From NCBI GenBank assembly GCA_964016885.1, contig OZ024742.1, positions 194,618,001-194,682,000 of the forward strand: 64,000 nt of DNA. The letters run 5' to 3'. Below are positions 7,345 through 48,625 of this stretch, in pieces. The stretch comes from Eledone cirrhosa. Taxonomy: Eukaryota. Under the pieces are notes generated by a model. It made no database searches. It was not told the DNA's origin and worked only from the letters and a program-made list of their open reading frames with translations. Made by a program: the position numbers and the translations under genes. Position 1 is the stretch's first letter. Each line of letters opens with the position of its first letter.

Positions 7345-8409
7345 TTGTGTAGGGGTATAAGTATGTGTGTGTTACGTTATATTGTTAGGTGATGCTATTG
7401 AGGTTCTTGGTTATGCTGGCAGGATGGTTAGAATGCTTATTTATGTAATTAAGCGTATCATTCGGCTTTCTATACGGGTAGTTCAAGACATTCGACAAAT
7501 TGAGGGTAACGTCGAAGTAATTAACGACCGAGTGGTTGGTCTCAACTTGTATGGAGAGGTTGAAGCCTTTAATGAAGGCTGTGAGTTCTTTTCTGAACCT
7601 GTCGCAAGCGCGTGGACCGCACTTTGTCATGGTCAAACCACCGCCCACATCACGGTACAAACCACTGCCCACATTGGGGAATTCTTCCTTGATAGAGAAA
7701 ATAAGGTAAAGTCCGATAAGATCAGTAACCTCCACGGAATCACTGGCGCCCATACTCACGTCGAATGTGGTACTATTAGATTTTTTAATCCAAATAGAGT
7801 CGTCGAAATTAATCACCGATGTACGGGCATTGCGGATGACATCGAGTTCGAAATCCTTAACCACCGTGAGTGTTTTAGCGAAGTTGATAGCTCTAAGAAG
7901 AAGTGGGAAAGGGATGGAGGAGTAGTAATATTTGATGTCGAATTGGATAAAACGGCAATGTTCCTTGTTGCATATGCCATTGAACCAATCAATCACCGCG
8001 AAAGAATTGTTCCACAGTGCACGAGCGGTGATGCTTCTAATTTCAGGTATAATTCTATCTAAAATCCTTTTACTAAGTCTACCTAAATCGGACTTCGTAC
8101 GGTTAATAAGCCGAATAGAGGGGTTGTTGGCGGAATTGGGTTTGTGATCCTTCAGGGTAAAGTGTGGATAAAAAGGGTCCAGAGTTTCAGTCCTGTCCTG
8201 GATGTTGAGTTCAGGGGTAATTTTAAACCCAGCATCGTTGATGCCATTGATTACACTCCGATTAGTTATCAGTTAATCCTTAGTTACAGCATTATATAGC
8301 AGTTGATGGTAAGTACTGCGCTCCGCTTGATATATATTGCCAGATTTGTCGGAGTGGACGTGCACGGCATTCGAATCCTTAATAGAACTAATTCTATTCT
8401 TTAGGTCCC
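7345..8409 (-). mobile_element. Penelope-like element RT fragment (same family as 36090-37890)
   Basis: FIQFDIKYYYSSI, TFDVSMGASDSVEVTDLIGL, GLYRD, PYRKPNDTLNYINKHSNHP; high nucleotide identity to the 36.1-37.1 kb element. Confidence 0.9.
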
Positions 8410-13513: not shown

Positions 13514-13576
<63 letters not shown>

Positions 13577-13581
<5 letters not shown>

Positions 13582-14498
13582 TAATAAAATAATGAATAAA
13601 CAAAGAAACAGTTCCTTATATTAAAAAAATTCATCATTTTACGATCGTTTCTAGGATATATATGTGTGTTAGAATTAGTATGCATATTCTATAGATCTAT
13701 GTACGATATTTATACAAACTATCAGAGGGAATATACATACCTACACATATATATGCTGTCTTCAGAAATAATGATATTTGTTTATTGGAAAAACAAAGAT
13801 TCAATACAATAGGTCTGTTTGGGAACAGGTTTTGAATTGACCAATAGAGAGATAGTGAGGGTCAAGATAGTAATATAGTAGTAGAAGAACCTTAAATTAT
13901 GGGTAGAGGAAGGTAGATTTCAGTTTCGGATGGAAAAGAATATTAAGAATGAAGGATTATTTTACGGAAGAAATAGGTCTTATCCTGACCTCAGAAATAA
14001 TTTTATTTGTTCATTGAATAAAACCAACCAAGATCTAATATATTCTGTCTGTTTGGTAAGAGGTTTAGAATTAACCAATAGAAAGTTAATAATTGGCCAA
14101 ATGGTAAAATAGTAGTAATTGAAGCTTGTTTTAGGGGTGAAAATAGGTCAGGTGGTCAGTAAAAGGTATACAAGCAGTTGCTGTTATAAAATAGTAATTC
14201 CAATACAAATATCTAAGGTGACTAAAGTTTTAAGATAAGAATGTTAGTGCAAAAGATACATCTATGAAAAGAATATAAATTAATTTAATTGATGGGTATA
14301 TTTATATTGATAAAATTATATTAATACATATCGATATGATAAATAAGAGTTAGATGCAGTTGAAAAGTGCTGTTAAAGATGAGGGGAAATTAAAAGAATA
14401 TAAAAATAATATATATATATATACTTATATATATATATATATACACATATATACACATACACACACACATATACACACATATATATATATATATATAT

Positions 14499-14551
<53 letters not shown>

Positions 14552-14815
14552 CATGCATATATACATACATACACATATATATACACACACATACACACTT
14601 ACATATACATATAATTATTGGGGGGGGGGATTAAATTTATTAGTGAGAAATAATAAATGTATATAGTTTTCAAGGAACATAGAGTCACAACCTGAAGTTA
14701 AAGCATTATATATGTTTACTTAATGGTATCAGTTTTAGGAAATGATATTTGTAAGAAGGAAAGCAAAATTATGTAGTTCATCAGTAGTAGAATATTAATT
14801 ATAGGTTAACTAAAT
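13577..14815 (-). repeat. 3' pseudo-LTR
   Basis: Direct repeat of 17581-18775 with scattered substitutions and a different internal microsatellite length. Confidence 0.9.
13632..13773 (-). ncRNA. Type I hammerhead ribozyme with long stem II (3' pLTR)
   Basis: Minus: CATTATTT-CTGAAGA-[~105 nt incl. ATATATATGTGT/ACACATATATAT and GGTATGTATATTC/GAATATGCATACT helices]-GAAA-CGATCG-TA-AAATGATG. Confidence 0.8.
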
Positions 14816-14851
14816 TAAAAATAGTTTATATATTAATTTCTAAAGTGTATA

Positions 14852-17326
14852 TTAATTTGGTTTATAATATTTAAAGGTTTTTCTCAGTTTATGATTACAC
14901 GATATTATTAATTCCTGTCGCTTATTTAATAGGATATCCTTAGATTTCATTATTTCAAAAAGTTCTTGGGAACATAATCTACATTCATATCTACTATTTT
15001 GATAAGGGGTGGCCCTTTTGAGCACACTCCAGGTCAGGTCATAATCTATATTCCTCTTTCTATAACTATTAATTATTTCAGCTAGAGATGTTGTATTAGC
15101 TATTGCGGCATTTTTAAAACTATGTTTGTGGGTATTAAATCTTACCTTAAATGTGTTAGAGGCAGCTCCTATATATGAATAAATTGAGTCCTTAGTGTTA
15201 ACTTTACATTTATATACTATGTTATTAACAAGGCAATTTCCTTTTAATGGACAGTTTGCCTTGTTTCTACAGTTACAACTTTTCGTGAATCCTGTATCTG
15301 AGGAGATATTATGGTTAGTTTGATGTACTGGTGGTATACTCATGGTTTGTTTACATTTATATGCATTATAGGAACTTATATTTTGTTTTATGTTTTTGGT
15401 TGTTGAGTAGGAGAATTTAACCGTTGATCTATTTAAGATTTGATGGTATTTATGGTTTGGCGTGAAGTTTTTCTCTAGGATATTAAAGAATTTTTTAGGT
15501 ATATTATCCTTAATTTGTAAATTAAATGGAGCATTATACCAAGTAACTCGTCTATTACGGTTTCGATGTTGTTTATTGTTTTTATAGGATGCATCTTGAT
15601 GTTTATTAAGAGAATTATTGTTAATGACCTCACCACACACATTTTTAGTTAGATTTATTGATTTAGGTGTTTTAGCTTGTTTATTAGGAGTTTTATTATT
15701 AACATTTATTAGAGTTGTAGGATGAGTAGTTTTTTTAGAGTTACTATACGGTATATTAGAAGAGTTAGAGAAATTTGGTTTTATGTTGGTTTTTTGGGGT
15801 ATAGTGTGATTGGCATTTAGGTGTGTATTTTTCATTTGGTGTTTGTTGGTAATATTAGGTTGTATGTTTGTAGTGTTATTGGTAGAAGGTATATATACTA
15901 ATCTATTTTTGTAGCCACTTCTAGCTAGAGCTTCGTTATGAAAGGTCGCATTTTTATCAAATACATCTTGGTTAGACGAAAGGTTAGAAATTCTAAGTGA
16001 TATATTATATGCAAGGTTTTTAAGGATAGATTTAGGGTGATTAGATTGTGAGTGTATGTAGTGTAAATTTTGGTTGGGTTTATGGTAAGGTTGGTAGATA
16101 CACGTAGATAAGTCTAATGTTATATCTAGGAAATTAACTACTTTACTTGTGTTTTCAAATGTAATATCTAGACTATAATAGTCTTTAAAGAAAGTTCTAA
16201 TAAGCTTTTTATTTTTTTCTATCTCTGAGATGCTAAGGTTATTGGAAAGAAGAAGACAGTCGTCACGATATAAACCACCTTTAAGGTGGGGAAAGGAAGC
16301 ATTTATGTTAAAAAGAAGAAAGAGGCCCACAAGATCAGTAATTTGGGCAGAATCGCTTGAGCCCATAGTAATATCGAATAGATTACTATATGTGTTTCTG
16401 GTCCAGTATTCATTCTGAAATTCCAATAGTGTTAGTCTAGCATGTGTAACAATATTAATGTCATCCAAAGTTAAGTTAGATCTATTTTTAGCAAATATCA
16501 AGGCTTTGTTCAGGAGTAAAGGTGATATAGAAGAAGAATAATTATCTATATCAAATTGTAGAAATGAAGCAGAGGATTTATTTCTAATATTATTAAACCG
16601 GTTAATTACCTGGGATGTGTTTTCCCAGAGTGGTAAATTAACATGTTTTCTTAATTGTGGGATGACTCTATCTAAAAATTTTTTACTAATTATTCCAATA
16701 TCATATTTGGAAGGGCATATAAGCCTTATAGAAGGATTAGAGTTAAAGTTAGATTTATGATCTTTCAGGTTGAAGTGTGGTCTTTTCAATGCCAAAGGTT
16801 CAGTTCTATCTTCAATATTAAGTCTATTCACTATGCTGTGTGTTTTGTTGTTGATGTTGGTAAGTGACGCATTGTTTGTTTTTCTATAATTTTTCCTGAG
16901 TTCTTTATATATGAACTCATTGTAATTTTCAATATCCATGTGATATAGATTTCCAGTTTTGTCCGAATGGACATGGATTTTTTTAGATTTTTTTAGGTCC
17001 AATAGGGTAGAATCAAGGTCCTTTTGAAAATTAGATTTATACCTCTTAAATTTGAGGTGTTTGATTAAATTAAAAAGGTCTTTCTCAAAGTTTTCAAGTA
17101 AGGAGTTGTGTGGTGGATTTTTATCTGTAGTGAAATCATACAAATATTTCCTATCAGTACATTTTGTTTTTTTATCGAAGTGGTAGGCCCTCCATCTGAC
17201 TCTTCTGATAAATTGGTTGGTTTTTTGTATCATAAGAAGTAAGAAATCATCCTTAGAAGGTAATGGTATATTCTTTAAAGAAGTTTCCAAGTATTGTTTT
17301 TCGATTGTGATATGGATAATGGACAA
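14852..17326 (-). CDS. PLE polyprotein: reverse transcriptase + CxC linker + C-terminal GIY-YIG endonuclease (824 codons, uninterrupted)
   Basis: SDKTGNLY, FLQFDIDNY, FDITMGSSDSAQITDLVG, GLYRDD, VNFLDITLDL, YIHSQSNHP; CNCRNKANCPLKGNCL; IVYKC...YIGAASNTFKVRFNTHKHSF; CRLC...E...LLNKRQEL; annotated start is TTG. Confidence 0.93.
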   Translation of the reverse strand: MSIIHITIEKQYLETSLKNIPLPSKDDFLLLMIQKTNQFIRRVRWRAYHFDKKTKCTDRKYLYDFTTDKNPPHNSLLENFEKDLFNLIKHLKFKRYKSNFQKDLDSTLLDLKKSKKIHVHSDKTGNLYHMDIENYNEFIYKELRKNYRKTNNASLTNINNKTHSIVNRLNIEDRTEPLALKRPHFNLKDHKSNFNSNPSIRLICPSKYDIGIISKKFLDRVIPQLRKHVNLPLWENTSQVINRFNNIRNKSSASFLQFDIDNYSSSISPLLLNKALIFAKNRSNLTLDDINIVTHARLTLLEFQNEYWTRNTYSNLFDITMGSSDSAQITDLVGLFLLFNINASFPHLKGGLYRDDCLLLSNNLSISEIEKNKKLIRTFFKDYYSLDITFENTSKVVNFLDITLDLSTCIYQPYHKPNQNLHYIHSQSNHPKSILKNLAYNISLRISNLSSNQDVFDKNATFHNEALARSGYKNRLVYIPSTNNTTNIQPNITNKHQMKNTHLNANHTIPQKTNIKPNFSNSSNIPYSNSKKTTHPTTLINVNNKTPNKQAKTPKSINLTKNVCGEVINNNSLNKHQDASYKNNKQHRNRNRRVTWYNAPFNLQIKDNIPKKFFNILEKNFTPNHKYHQILNRSTVKFSYSTTKNIKQNISSYNAYKCKQTMSIPPVHQTNHNISSDTGFTKSCNCRNKANCPLKGNCLVNNIVYKCKVNTKDSIYSYIGAASNTFKVRFNTHKHSFKNAAIANTTSLAEIINSYRKRNIDYDLTWSVLKRATPYQNSRYECRLCSQELFEIMKSKDILLNKRQELIISCNHKLRKTFKYYKPN

Positions 17327-17580
17327 GAAAAAGAGCTCAACTATTTATATATGGAGTTATAAAGTTATACATGTATATATATATAAATATATATACACAT
17401 ACAATATAAAAATAAGAATATCCCCATGAAAATAGGAGCAAAGTATGTAGATAAATCTACCAAAAGTTTACGGTAGTGTCCAATCCGTATGAAGAACTCA
17501 ATGTAATCCGGATATCATGAAAAGAGAAGATGCATTCAAAAACTACTTTCGGTGAAAAATAAACGGAAAACAGAGTCAAG

Positions 17581-18479
17581 ATAAATTAATAAAATAATGA
17601 ATAAACAAAGAAATAGTTCCTTATATTAAAAAATTCATCATTTTACGATCGTTTCTAGGATATATATGTGTGTTAGAGTTGGTATGCATATTCTATAGAT
17701 CTAGGTACAATATTTATACAAACTATCAGAGGGAATATACATACCTACACATATATATGCTGTCTTCAGAAATAATGATATTTGTTTATTGAAAAAAACA
17801 AAGATTCAATACAATAGGTCTGTTTGGGAACAGGTTTTGAATTGACCAATAGAGAGATAGTGAGGGTCAAGATAGTAATATAGTAGTAGAAGAACCTTAA
17901 ATTATGGGTAGAGGAAGGTAGATTTCAGTTTTGGATGGAAAAGAATATTATGAATGAAGGATTATTTTAGGGAAGAAATAGGTCTTATGCTGACCTCAGA
18001 AATAATTTTATTTTTTCATTGAATAAAACCAACCAAGATCTAATATATTCTGTCTGTTTGGTAAGAGGTTTAGAATTAACCAATAGAAAGTTAATAATTG
18101 GCCAAATGGTAAAATAGTAGTAATTGAAGCTTATTTTAGGGGTGAAAATAGGTCAGATGGTCAGTAAAAGGTATACAAGCAGTTGCTGTTATAAAATAGT
18201 AATTCCAATACAAATATCTAAGGTGACTAAAGTTTTAAGATAAGAATGTTAGTGCAAAAAATACATCTATGAAAAGAATATAAATTAATTTAATTGATGG
18301 GTATATTTATATTGATAAAATTATACTAATACATATAGATATGATAAATAAGAGTTAGATGCAGTTGAAAAGGGCTGTTAAAGATGAGGGGAAATTAAAA
18401 GAATATAAAAATAATATATATATATATACTTATATATATATATACACATATATACACATACACACACACATATACACAC

Positions 18480-18516
<37 letters not shown>

Positions 18517-18775
18517 CATACATGCATATATACATACATACACATATATATACACACACATACACACTTACATATACATATAATTATTGTGGGGAGGATT
18601 AAATTTATTAGTGAGAAATAATAAATGTATATACTTTTCAAGGAACATAGAGTCATTACCTGGAGTTAAAGCATTATATATGTTTACTTAATGGTATCAG
18701 CTTTAGGAAATGATATTTGTAAGAAGGAAAGCAAAATTATGTAGTTCATCAGTAGTAGAATATTAATTATAGGTA
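17581..18775 (-). repeat. 5' pseudo-LTR
   Basis: Direct repeat of 13577-14815. Confidence 0.9.
17636..17777 (-). ncRNA. Type I hammerhead ribozyme with long stem II (5' pLTR)
   Basis: Same motif as 13632-13773, core intact. Confidence 0.8.
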
Positions 18776-18918
18776 AGTAGTTTTTGAATGCATCTTCTCT
18801 TTTCATGATATCCGGATTACAGTTTTTGAATGCATCTTCTCTTTTCATGATATCCGGATTACATTCAGTTCTTCATACGGATTGGACAATACCGTATACT
18901 TTTGGTAGATTTATCTAC

Positions 18919-18966
<48 letters not shown>

Positions 18967-21079: not shown

Positions 21080-22260
<1,181 letters not shown>

Positions 22261-22952: not shown

Positions 22953-23021
<69 letters not shown>

Positions 23022-23026
<5 letters not shown>

Positions 23027-25801
23027 AGTATAGACATAGAATATTCGAAAATATTCTGTATGTTTATAATAAACATTTTGAAGACCTAATCGCTATAGAA
23101 TAGAATACGTCACGTATTACAATTAGATTCTCGATAAAAGCAAGGGAAGTAATCTACGCGTTTCATTCTTGTTAGAATTCATCAGGACTACATATCCAGT
23201 GCTTTTATCGAGAATGACACAGCTAGAGACTTATAGAATACTTAGCTGTGTACTGGAACTGGTTTGAAAGAGCGGTTGCCGGTCCGGCAGAAATTAGAAA
23301 TTGGAATAAATGCTCTGAAATAGCGATATATATGTGAGTATAGACATAGAATATTCGAAAATATTCTGTATGTTTATAATAAACATTTTGAAGACCTAAT
23401 CGCTATAGAATAGAATACGTCACGTATTACAATTAGATTCTCGATAAAAGCAAGGGAAGTAATCTACGCGTTTCATTCTTGTTAGAATTCATCAGGACTA
23501 CATATCCAGTGCTTTTATCGAGAATGACACAGCTAGAGACTTATAGAATACTTAGCTGTGTACTGGAACTGGTTTGAAAGAGCGGTTGCCGGTCCGGCAG
23601 AAATTAGAAATTGGAATAAATGCTCTGAAATAGCGATATATATGTGAGTATAGACATAGAATATTCGAAAATATTCTGTATGTTTATAATAAACATTTTG
23701 AAGACCTAATCGCTATAGAATAGAATACGTCACGTATTACAATTAGATTCTCGATAAAAGCAAGGGAAGTAATCTACGCGTTTCATTCTTGTTAGAATTC
23801 ATCAGGACTACATATCCAGTGCTTTTATCGAGAATGACACAGCTAGAGACTTATAGAATACTTAGCTGTGTACTGGAACTGGTTTGAAAGAGCGGTTGCC
23901 GGTCCGGCAGAAATTAGAAATTGGAATAAATGCTCTGAAATAGCGATATATATGTGAGTATAGACATAGAATATTCGAAAATATTCTGTATGTTTATAAT
24001 AAACATTTTGAAGACCTAATCGCTATAGAATAGAATACGTCACGTATTACAATTAGATTCTCGATAAAAGCAAGGGAAGTAATCTACGCGTTTCATTCTT
24101 GTTAGAATTCATCAGGACTACATATCCAGTGCTTTTATCGAGAATGACACAGCTAGAGACTTATAGAATACTTAGCTGTGTACTGGAACTGGTTTGAAAG
24201 AGCGGTTGCCGGTCCGGCAGAAATTAGAAATTGGAATAAATGCTCTGAAATAGCGATATATATGTGAGTATAGACATAGAATATTCGAAAATATTCTGTA
24301 TGTTTATAATAAACATTTTGAAGACCTAATCGCTATAGAATAGAATACGTCACGTATTACAATTAGATTCTCGATAAAAGCAAGGGAAGTAATCTACGCG
24401 TTTCATTCTTGTTAGAATTCATCAGGACTACATATCCAGTGCTTTTATCGAGAATGACACAGCTAGAGACTTATAGAATACTTAGCTGTGTACTGGAACT
24501 GGTTTGAAAGAGCGGTTGCCGGTCCGGCAGAAATTAGAAATTGGAATAAATGCTCTGAAATAGCGATATATATGTGAGTATAGACCGGCAACCGCTCTTT
24601 CAAACCAGTTCCAGTACACAGCTAAGTATTCTATAAGTCTCTAGCTGTGTCATTCTCGATAAAAGCACTGGATATGTAGTCCTGATGAATTCTAACAAGA
24701 ATGAAACGCGTAGATTACTTCCCTTGCTTTTATCGAGAATCTAATTGTAATACGTGACGTATTCTATTCTATAGCGATTAGGTCTTCAAAATGTTTATTA
24801 TAAACATACAGAATATTTTCGAATATTCTATGTCTATACTCACATATATATCGCTATTTCAGAGCATTTATTCCAATTTCTAATTTCTGCCGGACCGGCA
24901 ACCGCTCTTTCAAACCAGTTCCAGTACACAGCTAAGTATTCTATAAGTCTCTAGCTGTGTCATTCTCGATAAAAGCACTGGATATGTAGTCCTGATGAAT
25001 TCTAACAAGAATGAAACGCGTAGATTACTTCCCTTGCTTTTATCGAGAATCTAATTGTAATACGTGACGTATTCTATTCTATAGCGATTAGGTCTTCAAA
25101 ATGTTTATTATAAACATACAGAATATTTTCGAATATTCTATGTCTATACTCACATATATATCGCTATTTCAGAGCATTTATTCCAATTTCTAATTTCTGC
25201 CGGACCGGCAACCGCTCTTTCAAACCAGTTCCAGTACACAGCTAAGTATTCTATAAGTCTCTAGCTGTGTCATTCTCGATAAAAGCACTGGATATGTAGT
25301 CCTGATGAATTCTAACAAGAATGAAACGCGTAGATTACTTCCCTTGCTTTTATCGAGAATCTAATTGTAATACGTGACGTATTCTATTCTATAGCGATTA
25401 GGTCTTCAAAATGTTTATTATAAACATACAGAATATTTTCGAATATTCTATGTCTATACTCACATATATATCGCTATTTCAGAGCATTTATTCCAATTTC
25501 TAATTTCTGCCGGACCGGCAACCGCTCTTTCAAACCAGTTCCAGTACACAGCTAAGTATTCTATAAGTCTCTAGCTGTGTCATTCTCGATAAAAGCACTG
25601 GATATGTAGTCCTGATGAATTCTAACAAGAATGAAACGCGTAGATTACTTCCCTTGCTTTTATCGAGAATCTAATTGTAATACGTGACGTATTCTATTCT
25701 ATAGCGATTAGGTCTTCAAAATGTTTATTATAAACATACAGAATATTTTCGAATATTCTATGTCTATACTCACATATATATCGCTATTTCAGAGCATTTA
25801 T

Positions 25802-25806
<5 letters not shown>
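23022..25806. mobile_element. Retrozyme-like array 2: 310-bp HHR monomer, 5 minus copies head-to-head with ~4 plus copies
   Basis: Exact 310-bp period; inversion at ~24584; HHRs at 23149, 23459, 23769, 24079, 24389 (-) and 24676, 24986, 25296, 25606 (+), each 43 nt: GTAGTC-CTGATGA-ATTCT-AACA-AGAAT-GAAA-CGCG-TA-GATTAC. Confidence 0.92.
24676..24718 (+). ncRNA. Minimal type I hammerhead ribozyme (representative copy of array 2)
   Basis: Complete CUGAUGA/GAAA/UH core, 5-bp stem II, palindromic ACGCGT stem III, 6-bp stem I closed by the 16-bp outer helix ATTCTCGATAAAAGCA/TGCTTTTATCGAGAAT. Confidence 0.9.
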
Positions 25807-25866
<60 letters not shown>

Positions 25867-29456: not shown

Positions 29457-29461
29457 ATATA

Positions 29462-29499
<38 letters not shown>

Positions 29500-29504
<5 letters not shown>

Positions 29505-29720
29505 AATTAATAAAAATAATGAATAAAAACAAACAAACAGTTCCTTATATTAAAAAATTCATTATTTTACGATCGTTTCTAGGATATATATATGTGTGTG
29601 TTGGTATGTATACCATATATATCTATGTAAAATATTTACAAACTATCAGAGGGAATATACATACCTACACATATATATGCTGTCGTCAGACAGCATATAT
29701 ATGTGTAGGTATATATTCCC
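29500..29720 (-). mobile_element. Truncated pLTR end of the 13.6-kb PLE family, ending in a fold-back
   Basis: Matches 13577-13766; 29651-29720 is a hairpin centred on the HHR core. Confidence 0.8.
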
Positions 29721-30362
29721 TATATATATATATATATATATAATACACTTAGAAAACAAAACACGCAGGGGATAAGATCATCAAATGCCAAACTCTGAAC
29801 TAATAAATTCGAACTAATAAAATAGCCAATTATAAAATATATATATCTATACGAAATCTATGACATCATCCATATTTCCTACACCAGACTTCATACATAT
29901 TAAGAATGAGATATCTTATTTTCAATTTAACATATTTTTTTTATTTTATTCGTAATCATGCATAACACGGGTTTGGCAAATGACCAGCTCGTCGATTCCA
30001 ATCAGTTTCATATCCCGGCTACATTTACTCATTGGGTACCATAAAGATGAGAATCGGAATAGGTTCATCTCTGATTCTGATCTTCAGTGCTTCATCTTAG
30101 AGCAAATCGATCCCAGATTTCAGTCTGATTGGAAGCGATAAAGGCTACGAGATTTTTATTCACGAAGCATGAGTTACTTACCAGCATGATATATATATAC
30201 ACAAATACACATGCACCACCCCACCCTCACATATGTATGTATATATGTATATATATATATGTATGTATGTATTTATGTATTTAAAAATGTAGGTATGTAT
30301 ATATGTATGTATTATATACATATATATATATATAATTATATATACATATATAATATATATAC

Positions 30363-30402: not shown

Positions 30403-30479
<77 letters not shown>

Positions 30480-30485
<6 letters not shown>

Positions 30486-31620
30486 TAATAAAAATAATGA
30501 ACAGGTTCCTTATATTAAAAAATTCATCATTTTACGATTGTTTCTAGGATATATATGTGTGTTGGTATGTATATCATATAGATCTATGTAAAATTATTAC
30601 AAACTATCAGAGGAAATATACATACCTTCACAAATATATGATGTCTTCAGAAATGATGAGATTTGTTTATTGAAAACAACCAACAAAGATTTAATATAAT
30701 AGGTCCGTTTGGGAACAGGTTTTGAATTGACAAATAGAAAAGTAGTAAGAGGTCAAGTTGATAGAATAGTAGTAGTAGAAATTTAATTTAGGGGTAGAGG
30801 AGTGCAGACTTATGTTTTGAATGGAAAGAATACTTTGAATGAAAAGAATACTTTCGGGATGAAAAGAGGTCAAACCGGTGAAGGGTACACGAAAATTTGA
30901 TGTTATTAAAGAATAATGTTAAAAACGAAGGAAAGTAAAATTTTAGGGTAAGGGGTATTAGTGAGAAATACCAATCTTATTTAAAACACAAGGAATCTAG
31001 ATCTATAACAAGAAATTAAATTAATTGATAGGTAGACTTATAGGAATAAATTTATATTAATTCATATGGATGTGATAAATAAGAATTAGATGTTATTAAA
31101 GAATGTTGTTAAAAACGAAGGAAAATAAAATGTTGGGATAAGGATAGTAGTGAGAAATACCAACTTATATAGACTACAAGGAATCTAAATTCATAACAGG
31201 AAATAAAATTAATTTATATGTATACTTTTAGGTATTAATTTTAGGAAAAGAGAGCTGTAAGATGGAAATAAAATATATAAGATATCCTTAGATTTCATTA
31301 TTTAAAAAATGTTACTGGGAGCATAATTTACACTCATATATGTTATTTTGATAAGGGGTGGCCCTTTTGAGCACACTCCAGGTCAGGTTGTAATCGATAT
31401 TCTTTTTTCTATAATTATTAATTGTTTCAGCCAAGGATGTTGTATTAGCTAATGCGGCATTTTTAAAACTATGTTTTACTTTAAATTGGTTAGACGTAGC
31501 GCCTATATATGAATAAGTGGAGTCCTTTACATTTATAGACTATGTTATTAATAAGACAATTTCACTTTAATGGGCAATTTCTTTCGGTTTTACAGTTACA
31601 ACCATTCGTGAATATTATAT
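30480..31620 (-). mobile_element. 5'-truncated PLE (GIY-YIG remnant + pLTR) related to the 13.6-kb element; HHR at 30525-30658
   Basis: 31275-31620 matches 14930-15300; 30480-30870 matches the pLTR; CATCATTT-CTGAAGA...GAAA-CAATCG-TA-AAATGATG. Confidence 0.82.
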
Positions 31621-31833
31621 CAGGGGAGTTAGTCAAATTTTTTGAAAATGAATATACAAACGAATGGCACAGAAATTTGGCGGTTTCGACGCCTACTAAC
31701 AGTACTGCTACACCACTCGGGGCCACATATCAGTAAAAAGGTATGTTGCTTTTATAGCACCAAAGAAGGAAGGAAAAATAAAAGGAATGAAAACTATCCT
31801 GTTAAAATATATAAGCCAATGAAATTAGTAGGG

Positions 31834-33479: not shown

Positions 33480-34780
33480 GCAAGACGCGAACACTCTGAT
33501 TTTTTATTAAGGAGGTTATGGTTTGAGAAGATAATAGTATGGGTCTCTAGTAAACAGAGGTTACAAAATTTATTAGATGGTTTGTACGATGTCGCGTTAC
33601 CTATCACTTCCCATTTAAGTGTATAAGATTTATTTTTAGTTTTTAGATAGTGTGTGTAGCTAGATAGTGTTTTTTGAAAGAGTGGAGGTGCGAATTGTAT
33701 CTGGTTTTGAAGCAGTTTGAAGTAGAGCCTATATAGGTTTCAGAAGAGTTGCTAGTTGTGACGGTGCATGAGTATATGATATCCTTGATTAAGCATTTTT
33801 TATCTAAAGGGTAGGTTCTATTTGATCTACAGTTACAATTATTCTGGGTGTTAGTCTGCCGGTTATTATGTTGTGTAGAAGTCTGGATGGTAGCTATAGG
33901 ATTATGGTTATGGGGGTTGTCGTTCCCAGCGTTATTGCTTACACTAGTGCTATTACTATTGTTACTATTGTTATTAGGGTTAGTTGATATAATGTTATTT
34001 TGAAGGTTTATCGTCTGTTGTGATTTAGTTTGTTGGAAGTAAGAATTAATTTTCCTTTTATTGCAACTAGCTATGTGGTATGCTATGTTAGGCGTAGTAG
34101 AGTAGGAGATTTTAATAGTGTTTTTGTTTAAAAGGCTATGGTACTTGTGGTCAGATGGGAAGTTTTTATCTAGTAGTGAGAAGAAAGCCCTAGGTAGGTT
34201 GGTAGAGACGTTTAGATTGAAAGGAGGGTTGAAAAATGTATTATTTCTTCTTCTATTTTTGTTTTTTATGTCTGGTGAGTTGTTTCCTTTTATGGTACTA
34301 TGGTAATTTCTGTGGTGTGGGTTACTTTTGTTGGTATCCTCCGTATTAGTGTGTGTGTGGTTGCTATTCTTATTACTAAATTTCCTCATGGACATATTGT
34401 GCGAAATAATGTTGTAGCTATGTGTTTTTGTAGGTAGGAACTCGATCTCTATATTATGGCCTGATCTACCCAATGCCTGATTATAATATTGCGAGTTTTT
34501 GCTAAATATCTAACGTCATAGGATAGATTAGAGATTCTATTGGATACTCCCTTAGAGATAGAGTTTAATATTGATCTAGGGTGGTTAGACTTGGTATCTA
34601 CGTAAATGAGTTTTTCGTTAGGTTTATAGAAAGGTGTATATATCTTTGAGTCTAGGTAGAGGGTAGCGGCCAGGAAGTTAACGTTTTTAGTGTTTTTGTC
34701 CATGGTGATACTAAGGTTATAGTTTGTGAATGTCTTGTGCAATAGTTTTCTAGTTCTTTCTATATTGATTTTTTTATAAA
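33480..34780 (-). mobile_element. Frameshifted PLE fragment (RT thumb, Asn-rich linker, GIY-YIG), third subfamily
   Basis: YVDTKSNHP, FFNPPFN, IKISYSTTPN, CNCRSNRTYPLDKKCL, IIYSC...YIGSTSNCFKTRYNSH. Confidence 0.88.
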
Positions 34781-34865
34781 CTGTCTTTCACTACTTAGGG
34801 TGTAAAATATATATAACTATTAAAGGTTTTAGTATATACATAACCATAAATAGTATCCTTAATAC

Positions 34866-35794: not shown

Positions 35795-38695
35795 AATAAA
35801 TTTGAAGACTAAAATCCAAAGAGGGCTCGATAAGGATAAATATATATCAAATATATAAGAACCGTAGAGCAAATATTTATTAAAATAACAGATTTAAGTT
35901 TAAGCAAAGAATCGCTGCTTTCACACTTAACGGGATCTTCTGAAACTAACAAAGTCAATCTGTGAACGCAGAAGTGAATATTTAAAAAAACGTTGCAACC
36001 GGAGGAAGACAGGAAGACGATACTTTGGTTCGTGGAAACGTTCCCTGGCAAAGAACGGGAAAAAACGAATATAATACGTCATTATTTGGAGCGGGATCCT
36101 AATGCCGTGCACGTCCATTCCGACAAAACTGGCAACCTATATCAAGTGGAGCGCAGTACTTAGCATCAACTACTACATAATGCTGTAACTAACGATTACC
36201 GTAAAACTAATCGGTGCGTCATTAATGAAATCAACGATGCTGGGTTTTAAATTACCTCTGATCTCAACATCCTGGACCGGACCGAACCTCTGGACGCTAT
36301 TTCTCCCCACTTTACCCTGAAGGATCACAAATTCAATTTTCCGAACAATCCATCTATTCGGCTTATTAACCCTACAAAGTCCGATTTAGGTAGACTTAGT
36401 AAAAGGATTCTTGATTGAATTATACCTGAAATTAGAAGTTTGCCCCCTCTTACACTGTGGAACAATTCTTTTGCGGTGATTGATTGGTTCAACGGCATAT
36501 GCAACAAGGAACATTGCCGTTTTATACGATTCGACATCAATAATTACTACTCCTCCATCACTTTACCACTTCTCCTTAAATTTCGCTAAAACACTCACAG
36601 TGGTTAAAAATTTCGAAGTTGATGTCATCCTCAATGCCCGTAAGTCGGTGATTAATTTCGACGACTCTATTTGGATTAAACAATCTAATAGTACCCCATT
36701 CGACGTTAGTATGGGCGCCAACGATTATGCGGAGGTTACTGATCTTGTCGGCCTTTTCCTTCTTTTCTCTATCAAGGACGAATTCCACAACGAGGGCGGT
36801 GATTTGTACCGTGATGATGGTCTTTTGACCATGACTAAGTGCGGTCTACGTGCTTGCGACAGGTTCAGAAAAGAACTCACAGCCTTCTTTAAAGGCTTCA
36901 ACCTCTTTATACAGGTTGAGGCCAACCTCTCGGTCGTTAATTACCTTGACGTTACCCTCAAGTTATCGAATGGCTCGTATTACCCGTATAGAAAGCCGAA
37001 TGATACGCTTAATTACATAAGTAAGCATTCTAACCATCCTGCCAGCATAACCAAGAACCTGGTAAGAAAAGTTTCTTTGAGGCTTTCCCGTCTATCTACT
37101 AATGAGCATATTTTCAACGACCATTCCACATATTACAATGAAGCTCTTGCTCGGAGTGGTTTTATCGATAAGGTAGCATATACAGAGTACGAGAATATAC
37201 CTACAAGAAATAGATCCCGAAGCATTATATGGTATAACCCACCATATAATATGGAGGTGGCCACACCATTAGCTAAGATCTTTCTATACCTTATTACGAA
37301 GCATTTTCCCCTTACACATAAATATAGTAACATTTTTAATAGAAATACTATTAAAATTTCTTACTCTACGACTCCTAACCTTGCACATAACATCACAGCT
37401 TCAAATTGAGCTAAACTACCTAGCCGTAGGAACAAGTGCAACCCAGTAGTTAGTACTAACTGTAATTGTAGGAATCGGGTTGATTGCCCCCTATCCGCGA
37501 AATGCCTTTCTAGTAACATTGTCTACAAATGTTAGGTTGAAACACCCACGTCCCGTAGGGCCTACATAGGGTTAACCGCCAATAGATTCAAGCAGCGTCT
37601 TTACATGCATACCCATTCTTTTCGTTACCCTCTAAGAAGGAATATGACGCCACTTTCAGATTATATCTGGAGTCTAAAAGACAACCACACCCAATATAAG
37701 TTACACTGGGGGGTCCTAGCTAGGGCTAGACGTATAACGGAAATAAAAGACCATGTGACCTCTGCGCCACTGAGGCCATGGAAATACTCTACGCCACAGA
37801 CCACATTTTAAACAAAAAATCTGAGGCAATTTCGGTTTGTAAACATAAATTGCACAAAACTTTCCTGTATTACAGCCCCACATTATACCCTAACGGATAG
37901 TACGAACTATACGCGGATATTTTACGTCTGGATGTGGTAGCTAAATATATGTTTAGGTAAGTATATATTAGCTGTATGTATATTTGATTGTATATGATAT
38001 GGCGTATATTTTATATATTCTGGTACATATGCTTTTGGTTATGTGTATACGTGTGTTTTGCGTCTGTGTGAGTATGCGGGTTCGTACGTATGTAGGGTGT
38101 GTGTATATGTGTACTTCGTGTTTTGGTTGACGAACGTCTCCGAACATATGTGTATTTACATTTAGGTATGTGTGTGCGCTTGTTATATATGTATTATTTA
38201 TATACGTTTATTTAACTATTTGTATACAAGCACTCACACACACATATTTATATGTGCGTGTATTTGTATACCTATGGCGAGTGTTTGCATATGCGTGTGT
38301 ATGTACGTATATGGATACGTGTATGTATTTATTTAATTTCAATTACCACTGTATTTTATTTACTTTATTCTTAACTCTGAAGCCGAGAATCATTCGGTTT
38401 CCTAGTTAGAATTTTAGTCTACGATTTCAGTTATACCATTTACGTGGTTTTGTCTTTGCGTGCAATTGTTCTCCACGCTCCACATATGACGTATTATATT
38501 CGTTTTTTTTCCGTTCTTTGCCAGCCAACGTTTCCACGAACCAAAGTCTCGTCTTCCTGTCTTCCTCTGGTTGCAACGTTTTTTGAAATATCCACTTCTG
38601 TGTTGACAGATTGGCTTTGTTAGTTTCAGAAGATCCTGTTAAAGGTGAAAGCAGCGATTCTTTGACTAAACTTTAATCTGTTATTTTAATAAATA
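35795..38695 (+). mobile_element. Decayed PLE (RT + GIY-YIG at ~36090-37890) with inverted 5' pLTR segment
   Basis: GDLYRDDGL, VNYLDVTL, WYNPPY, CNCRNRVDCPL, AYIG; 35870-36090 is the reverse complement of ~38480-38695; (TA)n flanks. Confidence 0.9.
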
Positions 38696-41859: not shown

Positions 41860-44800
41860 AACCAAATACTGCTGGAGTCGGAGGAAGAAGAAGAAGGAAA
41901 GGGACCAGAACCAACTGGACGAAAGAATTGAATAGAACTGTTATGCAATGTTGCCTGAAGAGTAACCCCAAGGAGAAAGGCTATAGGAAACGGATGCATA
42001 ACATTTGGAACGAGATTCGTCTATTTAAATTAGATGAAGAAAAATGGCCGGGCAGGCTCGGGTAATAAGAACTAAAGTGTGGATAAGCGAGCTGGAACTG
42101 GAGGAACTGGGCAGAGAGATTAGGTTGGAAATGGAAAGTGGAGTATGCCAGACAAACGAGCCAATGGGAAATAAAGGTGGAGAGGTTGTGAGAACGGAGG
42201 AACCATCCGAAGCAGACAATGATCTAAATGCTGAAATGAATAATACCTGGAACAAAGATACGGCCATTGAGGAGATGAATGCTGACGGACTAGGACAAGA
42301 TTTGGTCGGTATCCTAAACTTAGTGGTAGATGAACTGAACAATGACAGTGGGAAACCTATGAACCTAAGATTTGTAGACAGGAAAAAGTTAAAAGAAACA
42401 ACAGCTAAGGTAAACAAAGTCATCCCATACCTTGAGGCGAGGAGCCTTCACCAGTGCAACAGTATCCTCAAAGCAACAGCAAATGCGTTGAGGAAATTAC
42501 TTGTCATAAAAGCGAGAGGAAACAACAAACAAGAAAGATCAGAACCTTGGTGGAAGAAACGACTGAATAGTCAAATCAGGGAAATTAGAAATGACATTGG
42601 AAAGCTTGAGTCCCTACTGAATGGGACAATAAAAAACATAGACACTAAAAATAGACTGGAAATAAAGTACAAAACTAGGAGGAAAAAGCTAAATATTATC
42701 ATAGAGGAACTGAAGCAACGCATTGTAGCAAAGAGAGCAAAAATTAGGCGATACGAGAGCAGAGTCAGTCAGTATAGACAGAACCGCATGTTTGACAACA
42801 ACCAGAAGATGCTGTTTGGACAGCTTGAAGGAAAAGAAAGAGGCAACGAATTGATCCCTGAGGCGGAACAAACTAAGACATTCTGGAGAGGAATATGGGA
42901 GCAGGATGTTAAACAAAATGAGCAGGCAGTGTGGATTGAGCCAGTACAAAAGGAGATAAGTGAACAGGCACAGCAACAAACTGATTTGAGTATCACAGTT
43001 GAAACTCTTAAGGGGCAGGTCAAACAACTAACCAACTGGAAATCACCAGGCCCAGATGGTGTGCAGGGGTATTGGATTAAAAATGTAACATCCCTCCACG
43101 CGAAACTGACAACCATGTTCAATGACTGCTTGATGTAAGGTGAGGTACCAGAGTGGTTGACAAAAGGTACCACAGTTCTGGTAATGAAAGATCGAATCAA
43201 GGGTAATGATGTTACCAACTATAGACCTATCACATGTCTGTCCTTAATGTGGAAACTGTTGACTAGCATTGTGTCTGAGGAAATCTACCATCACCTCCAC
43301 ACAAACAACTTGTTACCGAACGAACAGAAAGGATGCCGAAAGAAGTCCTGTGGTACAAAGGACCAGTTACTTATTGATAAGATGGTAATGAGGAATTGCA
43401 AGAGGAGACACACTGGTCTTGCCATGGGATGGATAGACTACAAAAAGGCATTTGACATGGTGCCCCATTCTTGGATCACCAAAAGCCTAGAGATCCTCTA
43501 GGTGGCAGATAACATCAGACAGTTGTTGGGCAAAAGTATGAAGTCCTGGAAAACAGTTAACATCAGCTGGAGAATCCTTGGGAGGCGTGAAGATCAAGAG
43601 AGGTATCTTCAAGGGAGATAGTCTGTCCTCTCTGTTGTTTGTCCTTGCCCTGATGCCCCTGACCATTATACTGCTCAAAGGGAGAGCAGGATACAAGTTG
43701 GAAAAGGGACGATCTTTATGGACGATCTTCGGGAAGAGTGAGAAGGAGTTGGATGTGCTTGTTGACACTGTCCGTATTTTCAGCTATGATATATGTATGC
43801 AATTTGGTATCAGTAAGTGTGGAGTCCTTGTGATGAAGAGGGGTAAATTGAGCAGAAGCAACGGAATCCAGGTACCAACAGGTGAGATGATAAAGGAACT
43901 TGACACTGAAGAAGGATACAAGTATTTGGGTGTTCTGGAGTCTGATGACATCAAGAACAAAAGAATGAAGGAATTGATAAGATCTGAATACATTCGGAGA
44001 GTAAGGGGCGTATTAAAGTCACATCTGAACAGTAGGAATGCCATAAGTGCAGTAAATTCCCGAGCTGTGTCTATTATTAGGTACAGTGCGGGAATTCTGA
44101 GATGGAATGTTGCTGAAAAAAAAGAAATGGATAGGAAGACTAGGAAGCTATTGACTATCTACAACATGTTCCACAAGAGGAGTGATGTCGATAGACTCTG
44201 CTTAATGAGATCTGAAGTTGGAAGAGGTCTTATCAGCATAGAGGACTGTGTTCAGATGGAGAAAAACAACCTACACAAATACGTGACTGATAGTAGCGAG
44301 CCAATGCTCAAAATTATACTGAAGGAGAAAACAATAGACTAGGGGATGTCCAAGGAAGAAATAACAAGGAGGAAGACCAACCTTCATGAAAAATCCCTTC
44401 ATAGCACCTTCTTTAAGAAAACTGAATTTAGAGATCCACAGACATGGAACTGGTTAAAAAGAGGAGACCTTAAAAAGGCTACATAAGTAATGCTAATGGC
44501 TGCGCAAGAGTAGGCCTTCAGAACGAAGTGGGTGAAACACCATATTTACAAGGAGGAGGCTAGCCCACTGTGCAGGATCTGTGGAGAGAGAGGGGACTGT
44601 GGGTCACATTGTATCCGAGTGTAAACACCTAGCCCAGACTCACTATAAAGGCTAGAGACATGATGTGATGGGCAGGGTGATCCACTGGCACCTATGCAAA
44701 GTAAACAATTTACCGCATTCTGAGAAGTGGTATGAGCATAAGCCAGAGTCGGTGATAGAAAACGATCAGGTGAAGGTGCTGTGGGATTTTAGGATACAGA

Positions 44801-44968: not shown

Positions 44969-47900
44969 TCGACCCGCTCCCATATCCGGAATACTCCTGC
45001 TGTTGGCCCTCCATGCTCACCACCAAGAAATCCAAAATAAAAGAGAGAAAAATGGTCAAAGGAAGACAATAAAAAGTTCTTGAGGCTTTCTACACTGTCA
45101 TGTACTACCCATCAAATAGATCGAATACAGAACAGACATATATCAACTGGAAAAAGAAACATCCCCAAAACAGAGGCTATATTGACAGTAACAAACTAGC
45201 CAATATACCAAGAAATATTGTTAAAAAAAAGTTACTAACTGATATAGAAATTTATCAGATCAAGCAATTAGCACAAAGTCAGCAAAGGGAAAATGAAATA
45301 TGTGTCAGTGAAAATGAGGTAAATGGTAACACTTCTAATCCCAGGGTTGGGGCGGAATCACTGACAGCAGCACAAATTAAAGAGAGGGTCGAATGGAGGG
45401 AGTGCATGCTCAAGATGAAACTGAAAATGAAAACAATGAGACCGTAAATGATAAAGAAATGAATGAGAATAAACTTGCCAACATGAAGGATGAAATTATG
45501 ATCGAATGGATGAAAATGAAAGAATCTGTAATGGGGGAACGAGACACTCTCCCTAAGATCCAGAACTCCAAACAGAACCAAAAGATAATACACAAGACTA
45601 ACGTAATACTCAAAACATTATCATCACAAACAAACTAAACATTACTGATCTAAATCATCTCTATTATGCATCGGCTGAAGTCACCACTCTCTTATGTGGA
45701 GTGAAAATGAAAAAAAAACAAAGGAATTCCCACAAGAAACCTACTTGGCAAGAGAACATCAATCGCCAAATAAACCTTCTCCGATCTGACATAGAAATGT
45801 TAACAAACTACAGAGTAGGTGAACATGTTAAACAAACTAAACTTAGAAAATTGAAAAGAAAATACAGTATAAAATCAACAAGTGACATAGAAATGATCTG
45901 CTGATAGAAATGATCAATCAAAAGGTGTCGGCCAAAGCTGCTCGTATAAGGCGCTTTGAAAAACGACCTAGATTCTATAAGGACAATAATATCTTCAAAA
46001 TCAACCAAAGAAATTCTACAGAAAAATTGGCAAGTCAACAATAACAGCTAAATTAATACGACCCTAGGAGGAAGTGCAAGAATCCTGGGAAAAGATTTGG
46101 GCCGAAGAAAGAGTTCATAATATACATGCACCATGGATAGACAGACAAATGAAAGAAACAGCTCACCTTGAGGAACAAACATGGGAAAATATAACAGTTG
46201 AACAGTTGCGTTTGGCTCTTAGAGAAACCAGCAAATGGAAATCCCCAGGAAAAGACAAAATACAAAATTTTTGGATAAATGCTTTCACAGAGCCCAACTT
46301 TACAATGAAATAGTTAGGGAGCCAGAAAAGCTACCATCATGGCTAGATAATGACATTGCATTCCTACTTCCGAAGAATGATGAGACAAACAATCCCCAAA
46401 ATTACAGACCGATAACATGCTTGACCACAATGTATAAAATGTTAACATCAGTCCTAACTGAATATACATATGACCATCTGATAACAATGATCTATTTCCC
46501 AATGAGCAGAAGGGGTGTAAACGAGGCTCATATGGCTGTAAAGATCAGCTTTTGGTCAACAAAATGATACTGAAAGATTGTCATAATAGACAAAAAATTC
46601 TATCAATTGCTTGGATAGATTATAAAAACCATTCGATAGTTTGCCACACAGTTGGATTGAAAAATGTTTAGAGATTTTCAAAATATCTCCCGTTGTCAGG
46701 AGGTTCCTATCATTCAGTATGAAGACATGGAAAATGACACTCCTTTTGAATAATGAAGAAAAATCACTGGAAGCTGGAGAAGTTAATATTAATTGTGGAA
46801 TGTTTCAGAGTGATACTTTATCACCGCTTTTATTCTGCTTCGCACTTATACCATTAAGTAAAATACTCAATGAAACAAAACATGGATATAAAGTCTATGA
46901 CAAAATCATTAATCGCTTGTTCTACATGGATGACCAGAAACTGTTTGCAAAAAATGATGAACAACTGCAAGGGCTATTATAAAATGTGATGCAGTTCAGT
47001 GATGAGATTAAAATGGTGTTAGGACTAGATAAATGCGCCAAAGCAACGTTCACCAGAGGAAAGCTGCTGAAAAGTTCAGCCACTAATCTTGATCGGGGGG
47101 AATGTGATAAGAGAACTTGATCAAGAGGAAACTTACAAATATCTAGGTGTTTGTGAAGGAGACGGAATCAAGCACTCGACAAGGATGGAAAGGATAAGGA
47201 AGGAATGGTACCACAGAGTAAGAGCAATCTTAAGAACGGAATTGAATGCAAGGAATCGGATCGATGCCATAAACACGCTTGCCATACCAGTAGTAGCCTA
47301 CAGTTACAATGTCATCAACTGGTCAAGCACAGAGATCCGTAGGCTCGATACAAAAATTAGAAAATTCTTAACCATGCACAGAATGCATTACTCTAAGCCA
47401 GATACAGATAGAATATATCTCCCTAGGAAAGAAGGAGGACGTGGGTTAATCCAGTTAGATATTGCGTTGAAAACTGCAACAATTAGATTATCTACATATC
47501 TCAGGGAATCACATGATTGGATGATCAAACTCGTTTTGAAACAGGAAAGCATCAAAAGATCATATTCCATTACAAAAGATACACAAAGATACAGTAATGA
47601 ACTACAAATTTCAGAAGTTCCATTTACTGCTGAAATGAAAAACACAGAAAGAGCAAAGCAGGTAAAAGTAACTGCAAAGAAAGAACTGCTACAGAAACTG
47701 GCTAAGAAATGGCAAGAAAAGCCTCTGTATGGAAAATACCCAGAAAGAGCTAACAATCCTGATGTTAACAAAAATTTAACCCATCAGTGGTTGGCATCCT
47801 CTGGACTGAAATCGGAGACTGAAGGACTAATTATATCAGCACAAGATCAGTGTCTGCCAAACAAAAATTACCAAGCCAACATAATAAAAATTGGATGCAA

Positions 47901-48625
47901 CTCATTATGCCGTGTATGTAAAAAAACAACCAGAGACCATTGATCATATAATTTCAATGTTCAGTCCTATAGCTCCAACCGAATACCTAAACAGCATGAC
48001 AGAGCTGCACAATACATACATTGGATAATGTGTAAGCATTTTGACCTGCCCCATGAAAAGAATTGGTGGGAGCATCAACCACCTCCCATACTTGAAAAGG
48101 ATCACATCTCAATCTTGGGGAACTTTAGCATCCAAACAGACCGAAAAATAGATGCAAATAGACCTGATATAATACTGAAGGGCGTTAAATAGACGATATG
48201 CCTGCTAATTGATATGTCCGTTCCAATAGACAAGAATGTATCTATAAAAACATTTTAAAAATTGAGCAAGTATAAGGACCTGGAGATAGAAATTGGAAAA
48301 ATGTGGAAATTGAGAACTAAAAGAATAGCTGTGGTTGTAGGCGCTCTAGGAATGATACCTAAGGGGCCTAATGATTGCATATCGCAAATCCCAGGAAACC
48401 CGCGTATAGTAGAAATACAAAAGATAATACTAAAGGGAACTGCCCATATACTAAGGAAGATTCTGTCAATATAAATACATCACAAATCTAAACATCTAAA
48501 GATGCATGTGTGTGTATGTATGTTCTTTCTTGAACATGGCGGACCTTGTTGTCTCTTGAGGTCACTGGTTGTGACTTGGTGATAACTCGTATGAACATAA
48601 AGCAAGATAAATGCAATTGTAAAAA
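44969..48625 (+). mobile_element. R4/Dong-clade LINE B, near full-length, decayed, (TAA)n tail
   Basis: PTWQENI, KWKSPGKDKI, YRPITCL, LFYMDDQKL, YKYLG, LKSETEGLIISAQDQ, CRVC, KYKDLEIEI...VVGALG. Confidence 0.92.

Follow-up and report, generated by a model that had tools for sequence, protein, structure and literature searches.

Background

Among the described Penelope-like elements (PLEs), those of the Hydra clade, which includes Hydra-1_Obim of Octopus bimaculoides, come closest to the element considered here. They are characterised (PMC8557442) by a GIY-YIG endonuclease at the C-terminus, by RW(K/R), DKT and CxCx5C motifs, by the absence of CCHH, by CxxC and CxH motifs round the last E and N, by a (TA)n target and by a hammerhead ribozyme near the 3' end, and the supplement of that paper already lists an octopus Hydra family targeting (TA)n. 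The same features, with a predicted and atypical hammerhead, are found in an element at 13576..18921 of a 64,000-nt stretch of DNA from Eledone cirrhosa (assembly GCA_964016885.1, contig OZ024742.1, positions 194,618,001 to 194,682,000 of the forward strand), hereafter called the window; the element itself is called the window copy, and the labels F1-F7 (Hydra families, the window family being F1) and R1-R3 are our own. Compared with the clade, the unit is long (4.0 kb, with a spacing of 4005 bp between its pseudo-long terminal repeats (pLTRs), versus "generally <3 kb", which is a descriptive rather than a diagnostic figure), the tail by which one end of an insertion exceeds the other measures 137 nt versus the 30-40 nt given for PLEs, and an Asn-rich insert of ~110 residues and a hammerhead stem II of 107 nt are the element's own. 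The clade is known, and the element, though of unusual dimensions, is a new but otherwise ordinary member of it; from Hydra-1_Obim the window family was set apart by inspection of the N-terminus, without an alignment.

For Poseidon of Anolis carolinensis (PAc), which belongs to another clade, experiments in vitro have demonstrated cutting and extension of both strands, two internal starts of the reverse transcriptase (RT) that bound the tail, and the use of uncleaved RNA (PMC11167929). The window family resembles PAc in its two internal RT starts bounding a tail, its AT-rich target, and the predicted both-strand priming from an uncleaved RNA template; it differs in that the PAc starts lie inside the open reading frame (ORF), in an AC-rich stem loop, with a binding motif delimited to 172 nt and no conserved paired hairpin described in the accessible text of PMC11167929. 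The Penelope elements of Adineta vaga (PMC3846280), again of another clade, likewise have direct and inverted pLTRs, an optional tail at one end, junction palindromes and Asn-rich ORF inserts, and differ in their fixed target site duplications (TSDs) and 31-bp tail. How PLEs choose their RNA, how synthesis comes to start internally at two sites and why one end carries a tail are open questions (PMC8557442 section 15; PMC11167929).

The window copy is a likely inactive Hydra-clade PLE, and it appears quite probable that its family inserts as two inverted arms in (TA)n, each arm likely starting just before a hairpin of the leader.

Predicted paired hairpins beside the end sites

Read along its minus strand, the element consists of (TA)n, an inverted 147-bp piece (18921-18775), a 5' pLTR, a 276-nt leader, the reading frame, a 3' pLTR and again (TA)n. 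The parts that bear on its ends are as follows:

13520..13578: (TA)n target on the left, met at ~13577 by the short 3' end of the element (...TTAATTTA)
13576..14806, minus: 3' pLTR, a long 3' untranslated region (UTR) with internal microsatellite, 94.8% identical to 17581-18774
13628..13777, minus: predicted hammerhead of type I, its stem II 107 nt long and its stem III a palindrome (ACGATCGT); the cut is expected after 13640
17335..17439, minus: predicted hairpin 2, GCTCC ... G-TT bulge-GAGC, with long inner stem; z -4.65
17444..17580, minus: 137-nt tail, from short-end site to long-end site
17496..17576, minus: predicted hairpin 1, ACTCT ... A-TT bulge-GAGT, ~4 nt past the short-end site; z -1.94, weak alone
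17581..18774, minus: 5' pLTR, a 5'-truncated tandem copy, with a second hammerhead at 17632-17781
18775..18921, plus: inverted arm, tail piece only, a reverse copy of 17444-17548 plus a 42-bp duplication; its long end (...ATCTACA) runs into (TA)n
18919..18964: (TA)n target, right flank

The inverted 5' piece and the (TA)n flanks, both of which had been described in an earlier note made from the letters alone, are borne out by this map; TSDs are unreadable within (TA)n.

An end survey was made of the 30 best pLTR loci of the window family, 28 of which were classified by script. All 28 classified ends lie in TA runs, so that the (TA)n bias on whose presence the earlier note had staked its case does exist; 15 of the ends are short and 13 are long, lying 137 nt further on (one of the 13 was labelled read-through by the threshold, yet ends in TA), and inverted pairs combine one short with one long end each. 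The two end sites lie 4-5 nt before the two copies of a predicted RNA hairpin, GCTC(C/T)...2-nt bulge-GAGCAC, upstream of the start codon; in the window copy hairpin 2 starts ~5 nt past the long-end site and stops 30 nt short of the start-codon position. The same arrangement recurs in six more Hydra families with open frames, which were obtained from searches with other proteins; each of them has two end sites in (TA)n, separated by 68-175 nt. Over the seven Hydra families of this genome, 13 of 14 ends are followed after 0-10 nt by RCTC, for which the background at any one position is 9%; past a 2-nt bulge, this RCTC pairs with a GAGY further downstream, the closing pair being A-U in three families and G-C in four. 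In the window family the inner stems have become longer, with loops of 73 and 97 nt, which explains its long tail.

The motif extends well beyond this genome. With a matrix trained on the 14 arms and applied to the 260 nt before the ORF, it was found upstream of 51 of 54 metagenome Hydra ORFs (those with enough upstream DNA among 78 loci fetched, some of them near duplicates), twice in 41, compared to 5 of 162 controls; its positions are near -30 and -90, and a complementary 5' arm is present in 50. Leaving aside 15 rows of the metagenome end survey that are read-through or contig ends, eight of nine ends into simple repeats lie 0-6 nt before GCTC. In published Hydra consensi the motif is clear by eye in four of six (a coral, two sea cucumbers, and a copepod with a GCCC/GGGC swap), while the octopus consensus is diverged and the sixth does not cover the region. 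Among 62 distinct hairpins, with pairs counted on anchored arms, inner pairs 1-3 are Watson-Crick in 61/62, 41/56 and 24/32 cases, versus shuffle means of 33, 16 and 9, although these counts are not independent and are inflated, because the hairpins are related by descent. The paired hairpin was found neither in Rfam nor in the literature searched, which included the main text of PMC8557442 (Repbase notes, supplementary figures and most subscription journals lay outside the search); Rfam, run on eight loci at E<=1, returned only sub-threshold microRNA and small nucleolar RNA matches, in two microsatellite-rich loci of this genome.

Following these results, it is likely the hairpin that determines where the RT starts, at the two sites that give rise to the PLE tail, as far as can be judged from sequence. 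In the mechanism that we propose, the protein of an intact sibling would bind both hairpins on a read-through RNA left uncleaved (the Anolis Poseidon, by analogy, suggests that it probably does so as a dimer), and would cut both strands of the symmetric (TA)n target. Each hairpin would anchor one RT, each RT would use one strand of the cut to prime a complementary DNA (cDNA), and this pair of cDNAs would be joined head to head at their far ends, from which it follows that every insertion would have one short and one long end, with a tail length equal to the hairpin spacing. The common ~550-bp palindromes of the family would arise if priming took place at the hairpins in the 5' leader of the RNA itself. 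That a doubled, clade-wide hairpin anchors two RTs and fixes both priming sites, the tail being a spacer and each insertion a two-ended event from one cut, seems on the whole probable.

The inverted insertions themselves are informative as to the template. The first 100 hammerhead matches listed contain 16 close inverted pairs, in 12 of which each arm breaks off within 8-48 nt of the core of the other, on the 5' strand of stem I, and short repeated jumps are frequent there. It seems that uncleaved RNA is copied, as in PMC11167929, because the arms run through the cleavage site, and we infer that the 5' end of the RNA lies at the position of hammerhead stem I. Palindromic mini-insertions of ~550 bp with arms stopping at stem I were observed at G000:C1:1122500-1123700 and 15 like loci (L353-L368); these palindromes, which look like miniature inverted-repeat transposable elements, are probably short cDNA pairs.

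An alternative is that the paired hairpins serve translation or transcription, or the reading of DNA by the endonuclease, and that the ends lie beside them for another reason, such as TA microhomology. This we consider unlikely, although several observations would fit it: the 3' arm of hairpin 2 is mostly 22-46 nt upstream of the start codon, and this fixed distance equally suits a role in translation; GCTC/GAGC is nearly invariant in sequence; the Penelope endonuclease is reported to need tail DNA (as cited in PMC11167929); and the hairpins contain few G-U pairs, for which reason covariation does not fix the strand on which they act. Against it stands the fact that both hairpins, and not the ATG-proximal one alone, are directly preceded by an end, over spacings of 55-175 nt, and that the ends are discrete even though the leaders are AT-rich throughout.

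The anchoring of two RTs by the hairpins nevertheless has to be set against a number of observations that do not fit it easily, in addition to the shared descent of the hairpins and the position of hairpin 2. The sole exception among the 14 ends, the long end of F5, has only the 3' half of hairpin 2; in the metagenomes, end L302 is 62 nt away from a GCTC, and six of seven ends outside simple repeats have no hairpin near them; one locus (L094) has two short ends. As for the structure, inner pair 4 is not significant (p 0.11), inner pair 1 mostly divides hairpin 1 from hairpin 2, and local pairing probability is low in 2 of 17 hairpins. The start sites of Poseidon showed no strand bias in vitro (PMC11167929), and among nine close copies of the window family's hammerhead (see below) stem II shows one-sided changes only.

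With a short, conserved, covarying hairpin lying immediately 3' of the two start sites, the open PLE questions can be tested directly, and there is a sequence rule by which Hydra ends can be annotated and non-coding parasites assigned to their motors; the hairpin is also relevant to the anchoring of telomerase-like RTs on RNA. If the anchoring of two RTs is true, there would be a defined RNA signal for the choice of template and start site in the sister group of telomerase, and a portable handle of ~30 nt for internal priming.

Predicted hammerheads of the pLTRs

Each pLTR contains a type I hammerhead core (CTGAAGA at 13765/17769, GAAAC at 13651/17655), so that the two hammerhead-bearing pLTRs of the earlier note hold, with the qualification that the predicted ribozyme is atypical: next to a 9-bp stem I and a palindromic stem III it would have the 107-nt stem II. 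Its fold has a z of -3.1, with none of 200 shuffles as good, and a 19-mer of it occurs 9,532 times in the genome. An Rfam scan of the window at the gathering score gave no match, the pLTR hammerheads included. A further, minimal hammerhead family with stem III ACTAGT is present at ~10547 of the window and at L053 and L142, while the 3' regions of F2 and F3 (L137, L150) seem, by eye, to hold degenerate cores (CAGAAGA; TTGATGA with GAAAA).

Protein and clade assignment

The frame is open from stop to stop over 830 codons (14852-17344, minus). Its parts are:

14852..17305, minus: family reading frame, 817 residues; first codon ATC versus ATG in siblings; W249R, Y469H and 20 further private or near-private changes
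14891..15277, minus: CxCx5C linker and GIY-YIG endonuclease, distal CxxC and CxH, without CCHH
15560..15880, minus: Asn/Lys/Thr-rich insert from thumb to linker, predicted disordered
16259..17197, minus: RT with RWR, DKT, FDIDN, MGSSDS and YRDD (16270-16259); best structural matches of its model are telomerase RTs

The architecture is that of a single ORF with RT and C-terminal GIY-YIG and no N-terminal CxC. RWR (residues 50-52) is the R-for-K variant of RWK, with RW[KR] present in all seven local Hydra families; DKG is replaced by DKT (128-130); the linker reads C690-x-C692-x5-C698-P-x4-C704 (690-704) and is followed by IVY/YIG, a distal CxxC (788/791) and CxH (816/818), with no Cys pair inside the GIY-YIG. 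This agrees with the layout that the earlier note had read from the letters (RT, C-terminal GIY-YIG, CxC-x5-CP-x4-C linker and distal CxxC), and the motif list given for the Hydra clade in PMC8557442 section 11 is the same. The traits of other clades are absent: those of Neptune (CX2-5CxxC linker, CCHH, DKG), to whose local representatives the protein is 22-33% identical over short stretches; those of Penelope/Poseidon (no linker finger, CCHH, DKG), a clade without a named reference in the tree below; and those of Naiad/Chlamys (N-terminal endonuclease, CxC domain), the endonuclease here being C-terminal.

In a tree of 41 fetched RT cores, into which named Hydra references were not entered and from which one local Penelope/Nematis-like frame (L345) dropped out, 36 motif-defined Hydra-type rows, the window included, are split at 100/100 from five Neptune-type rows (a label that rests on motifs named in PMC8557442). 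A subclade of 14 rows unites the window with the six other families of the same genome and an Argonauta protein. The likeness to the Hydra clade suspected in the earlier note is therefore upheld by the motifs and by the separation from Neptune-type RTs, and both support the assignment of the window element to that clade. A Pfam search of the ORF at E 0.1 gave no match, and a sequence search of the PDB with the family alignment gave 0 matches. The AlphaFold model (mean predicted local distance difference test score 81) predicts a disordered Asn-rich insert, with telomerase RTs as the best structural matches noted above.

State of the window copy and its family

The 824-codon ORF of the earlier note is open indeed, but its count starts at a TTG, whereas the family frame comprises 817 residues from an ATG, and it is not an intact gene. 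The start codon is ATG in 21 of 22 other loci and ATC in the window copy; W249 and Y469, each conserved in 22/22 family loci and 18/18 distant homologs, are both changed, and these three are among 23 private or near-private changes relative to the 22 other loci. The changed letters are also present in contigs from sequencing runs (kind unrecorded). Because the start reads ATC and two otherwise invariant residues are changed, the window copy is likely dead, and it likely represents, to judge from its sequence, a dead copy of a recently active family. The openness of its frame is not unusual, since, of the 54 near full-length relatives that were scored in the genome, 36 have no stop. Versus three siblings, 34-41 codons differ nonsynonymously and 10-16 synonymously, whereas synonymous change is dominant in comparisons between subfamilies (77/99 and 70/93 codons).

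The window copy is 96-98% identical to its nearest siblings and 90.5-92% to a younger subfamily, which has open frames and dispersed copies that are 99-99.6% alike. Open young copies also occur in each of four near-identical 6.65-kb tandem units (G000:C6:49528822-49551256) and within a 12.1-kb duplication (C4:191715364-191729950). Many siblings (L046, L047, L056, L059) carry one to four tandem repeats of the last 110-170 nt of the ORF in the 3' UTR, of which the window copy has none. Older pieces of the window family (80-88%) lie at 29457-29739 and 30416-31631 of the window, one being a fold-back at the hammerhead.

The neighbouring retrozymes and their motor

Animal non-LTR (long terminal repeat) retrozymes are tandem units with a minimal type I hammerhead, for which PLEs have already been proposed as the motor (PMC7229834; bioRxiv 10.64898/2026.07.22.740005). 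Two arrays of this kind, both independent insertions, lie close to the window copy:

21175..22036: 312-nt retrozyme array, inverted, 0.8 + 2 units, 93% identical to the young unit
23016..25807: 310-nt retrozyme array, 5.1 units on the minus and 4.0 on the plus strand, 100% identical

The hammerhead of the 310-nt unit is likewise minimal and of type I; the genome has 13,763 occurrences of a 17-mer from the unit, and units are 100% identical across chromosomes (150/150 among the matches listed). For a survey of ends, 22 arrays were taken, namely the two in the window and 20 from the best matches, hence the youngest. Twenty of the 22 are inverted, and 19 of these combine a short end, at +136-139 from the cleavage site, with a long end at +163-169. 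Of the 42 3' ends, 33 have a TA-step fraction >=0.7 over 40 nt (background 5%), and the other nine open with a shorter TA run. No poly-A or TAA tail was seen in the 22 arrays, so that these hallmarks of a long interspersed nuclear element, which the earlier note had named as evidence against its view, did not appear. Since inverted arms, short and long ends and (TA)n constitute the insertion signature of PLEs (PMC8557442 section 6; PMC3846280), a PLE motor is well supported; differently from the published retrozymes, the signature is seen here directly on the arrays, and no parent pLTR was found, unlike for many Xenopus families (bioRxiv 10.64898/2026.07.22.740005).

Which PLE this would be is another matter. 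The neighbouring retrozymes were very probably moved by some PLE, but probably not by the window family, and the window copy itself is almost surely not their motor, as the earlier note had suggested it to be. The link that the note drew from shared target and geometry does exist, F1 and the retrozymes having the same (TA)n target and the same inverted short/long arrangement, but it is not specific, because at least six other Hydra families and several Neptune-type families have both. The young F1 subfamily with its open frames, and the general proposal of PLEs as retrozyme motors, would also speak for F1; yet there is no homology beyond AT-rich words, the retrozyme tail is 26-35 nt versus 137 nt, the retrozyme lacks the Hydra hairpin and the window copy lacks an ATG, and the end rule given by the hairpin argues against that motor assignment. 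As to age, the retrozyme units are 100% identical, versus 96-98% between the window copy and its nearest siblings, and the F4 copies, which are 99.5-99.95% alike between dispersed loci, fit the retrozyme burst better than F1, all of which makes the window element or its family a very improbable motor. That another Hydra family (F4, F5, F6 or F7, all young) moves the retrozymes by reading a degenerate hairpin could well be the case, although we would stop short of favouring it. The order of features in the retrozyme is that of a Hydra leader (hammerhead, short end, GCT...AGAGCA(C), long end, GCTCT...), and a comparison of 113 distinct hammerhead-like cores from fetched loci shows F5's stem II to be the non-retrozyme one closest to that of the older unit. 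On the other hand, Hydra motif scores in retrozymes are not above those of shuffles, the idea that the retrozyme carries a Hydra hairpin having failed two shuffle tests (p 0.19-0.81; p 0.38-0.71); its GCTCT lies 26-30 nt past the long end instead of 0-10 nt, Hydra tails in this genome measure 68-175 nt, and no retrozyme-like pLTR accompanies any fetched ORF.

A Neptune-type or other non-Hydra PLE is possible, if only tentatively. Neptune-type families have two ends in (TA)n as well, one of them having, like the retrozyme, a tail of ~30 nt behind an internal TA run at its short end, and the hammerhead core of the R2 retrozymes is closest, weakly (score 5 of 14), to Neptune-type cores; their tails, however, have a different motif (ACTCGTGT), the 50 GIY-YIG loci show no retrozyme homology except for separate retrozyme insertions, and the fetched Neptune-type frames are mostly broken and 90-98% alike in protein, in a search that did not select young copies. 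A motor of some other kind is improbable. A retrozyme parent was not found by BLAST against the F1-F7 loci, the 50 GIY-YIG loci and 30 R2 loci, nor in the loose ends of contigs, all matches being separate retrozyme insertions.

Other observations

Neptune-type tails (L205, L206, L213, L333, L350) have the common motif ACTCGTGT followed by a small hairpin, possibly an equivalent of the Hydra signal that is specific to their clade. A second family of retrozymes, ~320 nt long and ~75% like that of the window, with a UUGAUAA core and the same two ends, occurs at L225-L254 and at G000:C14:23498700-23509400. At 24583-24892 of the window, A>G is listed for contigs of run X4 at 14 places and T>C at 3, changes that X1/X2 mostly lack and that would fit adenosine-to-inosine editing of double-stranded retrozyme RNA, X4 being another sample that is not recorded as RNA. 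Fragments of F2 and F3, both of which are abundant and have open full-length relatives elsewhere, lie at 7385-8272, 36094-37409 and 33643-34787 of the window, and broken RT frames of other non-LTR elements at 305-1455, 42038-44342 and 45073-47943.

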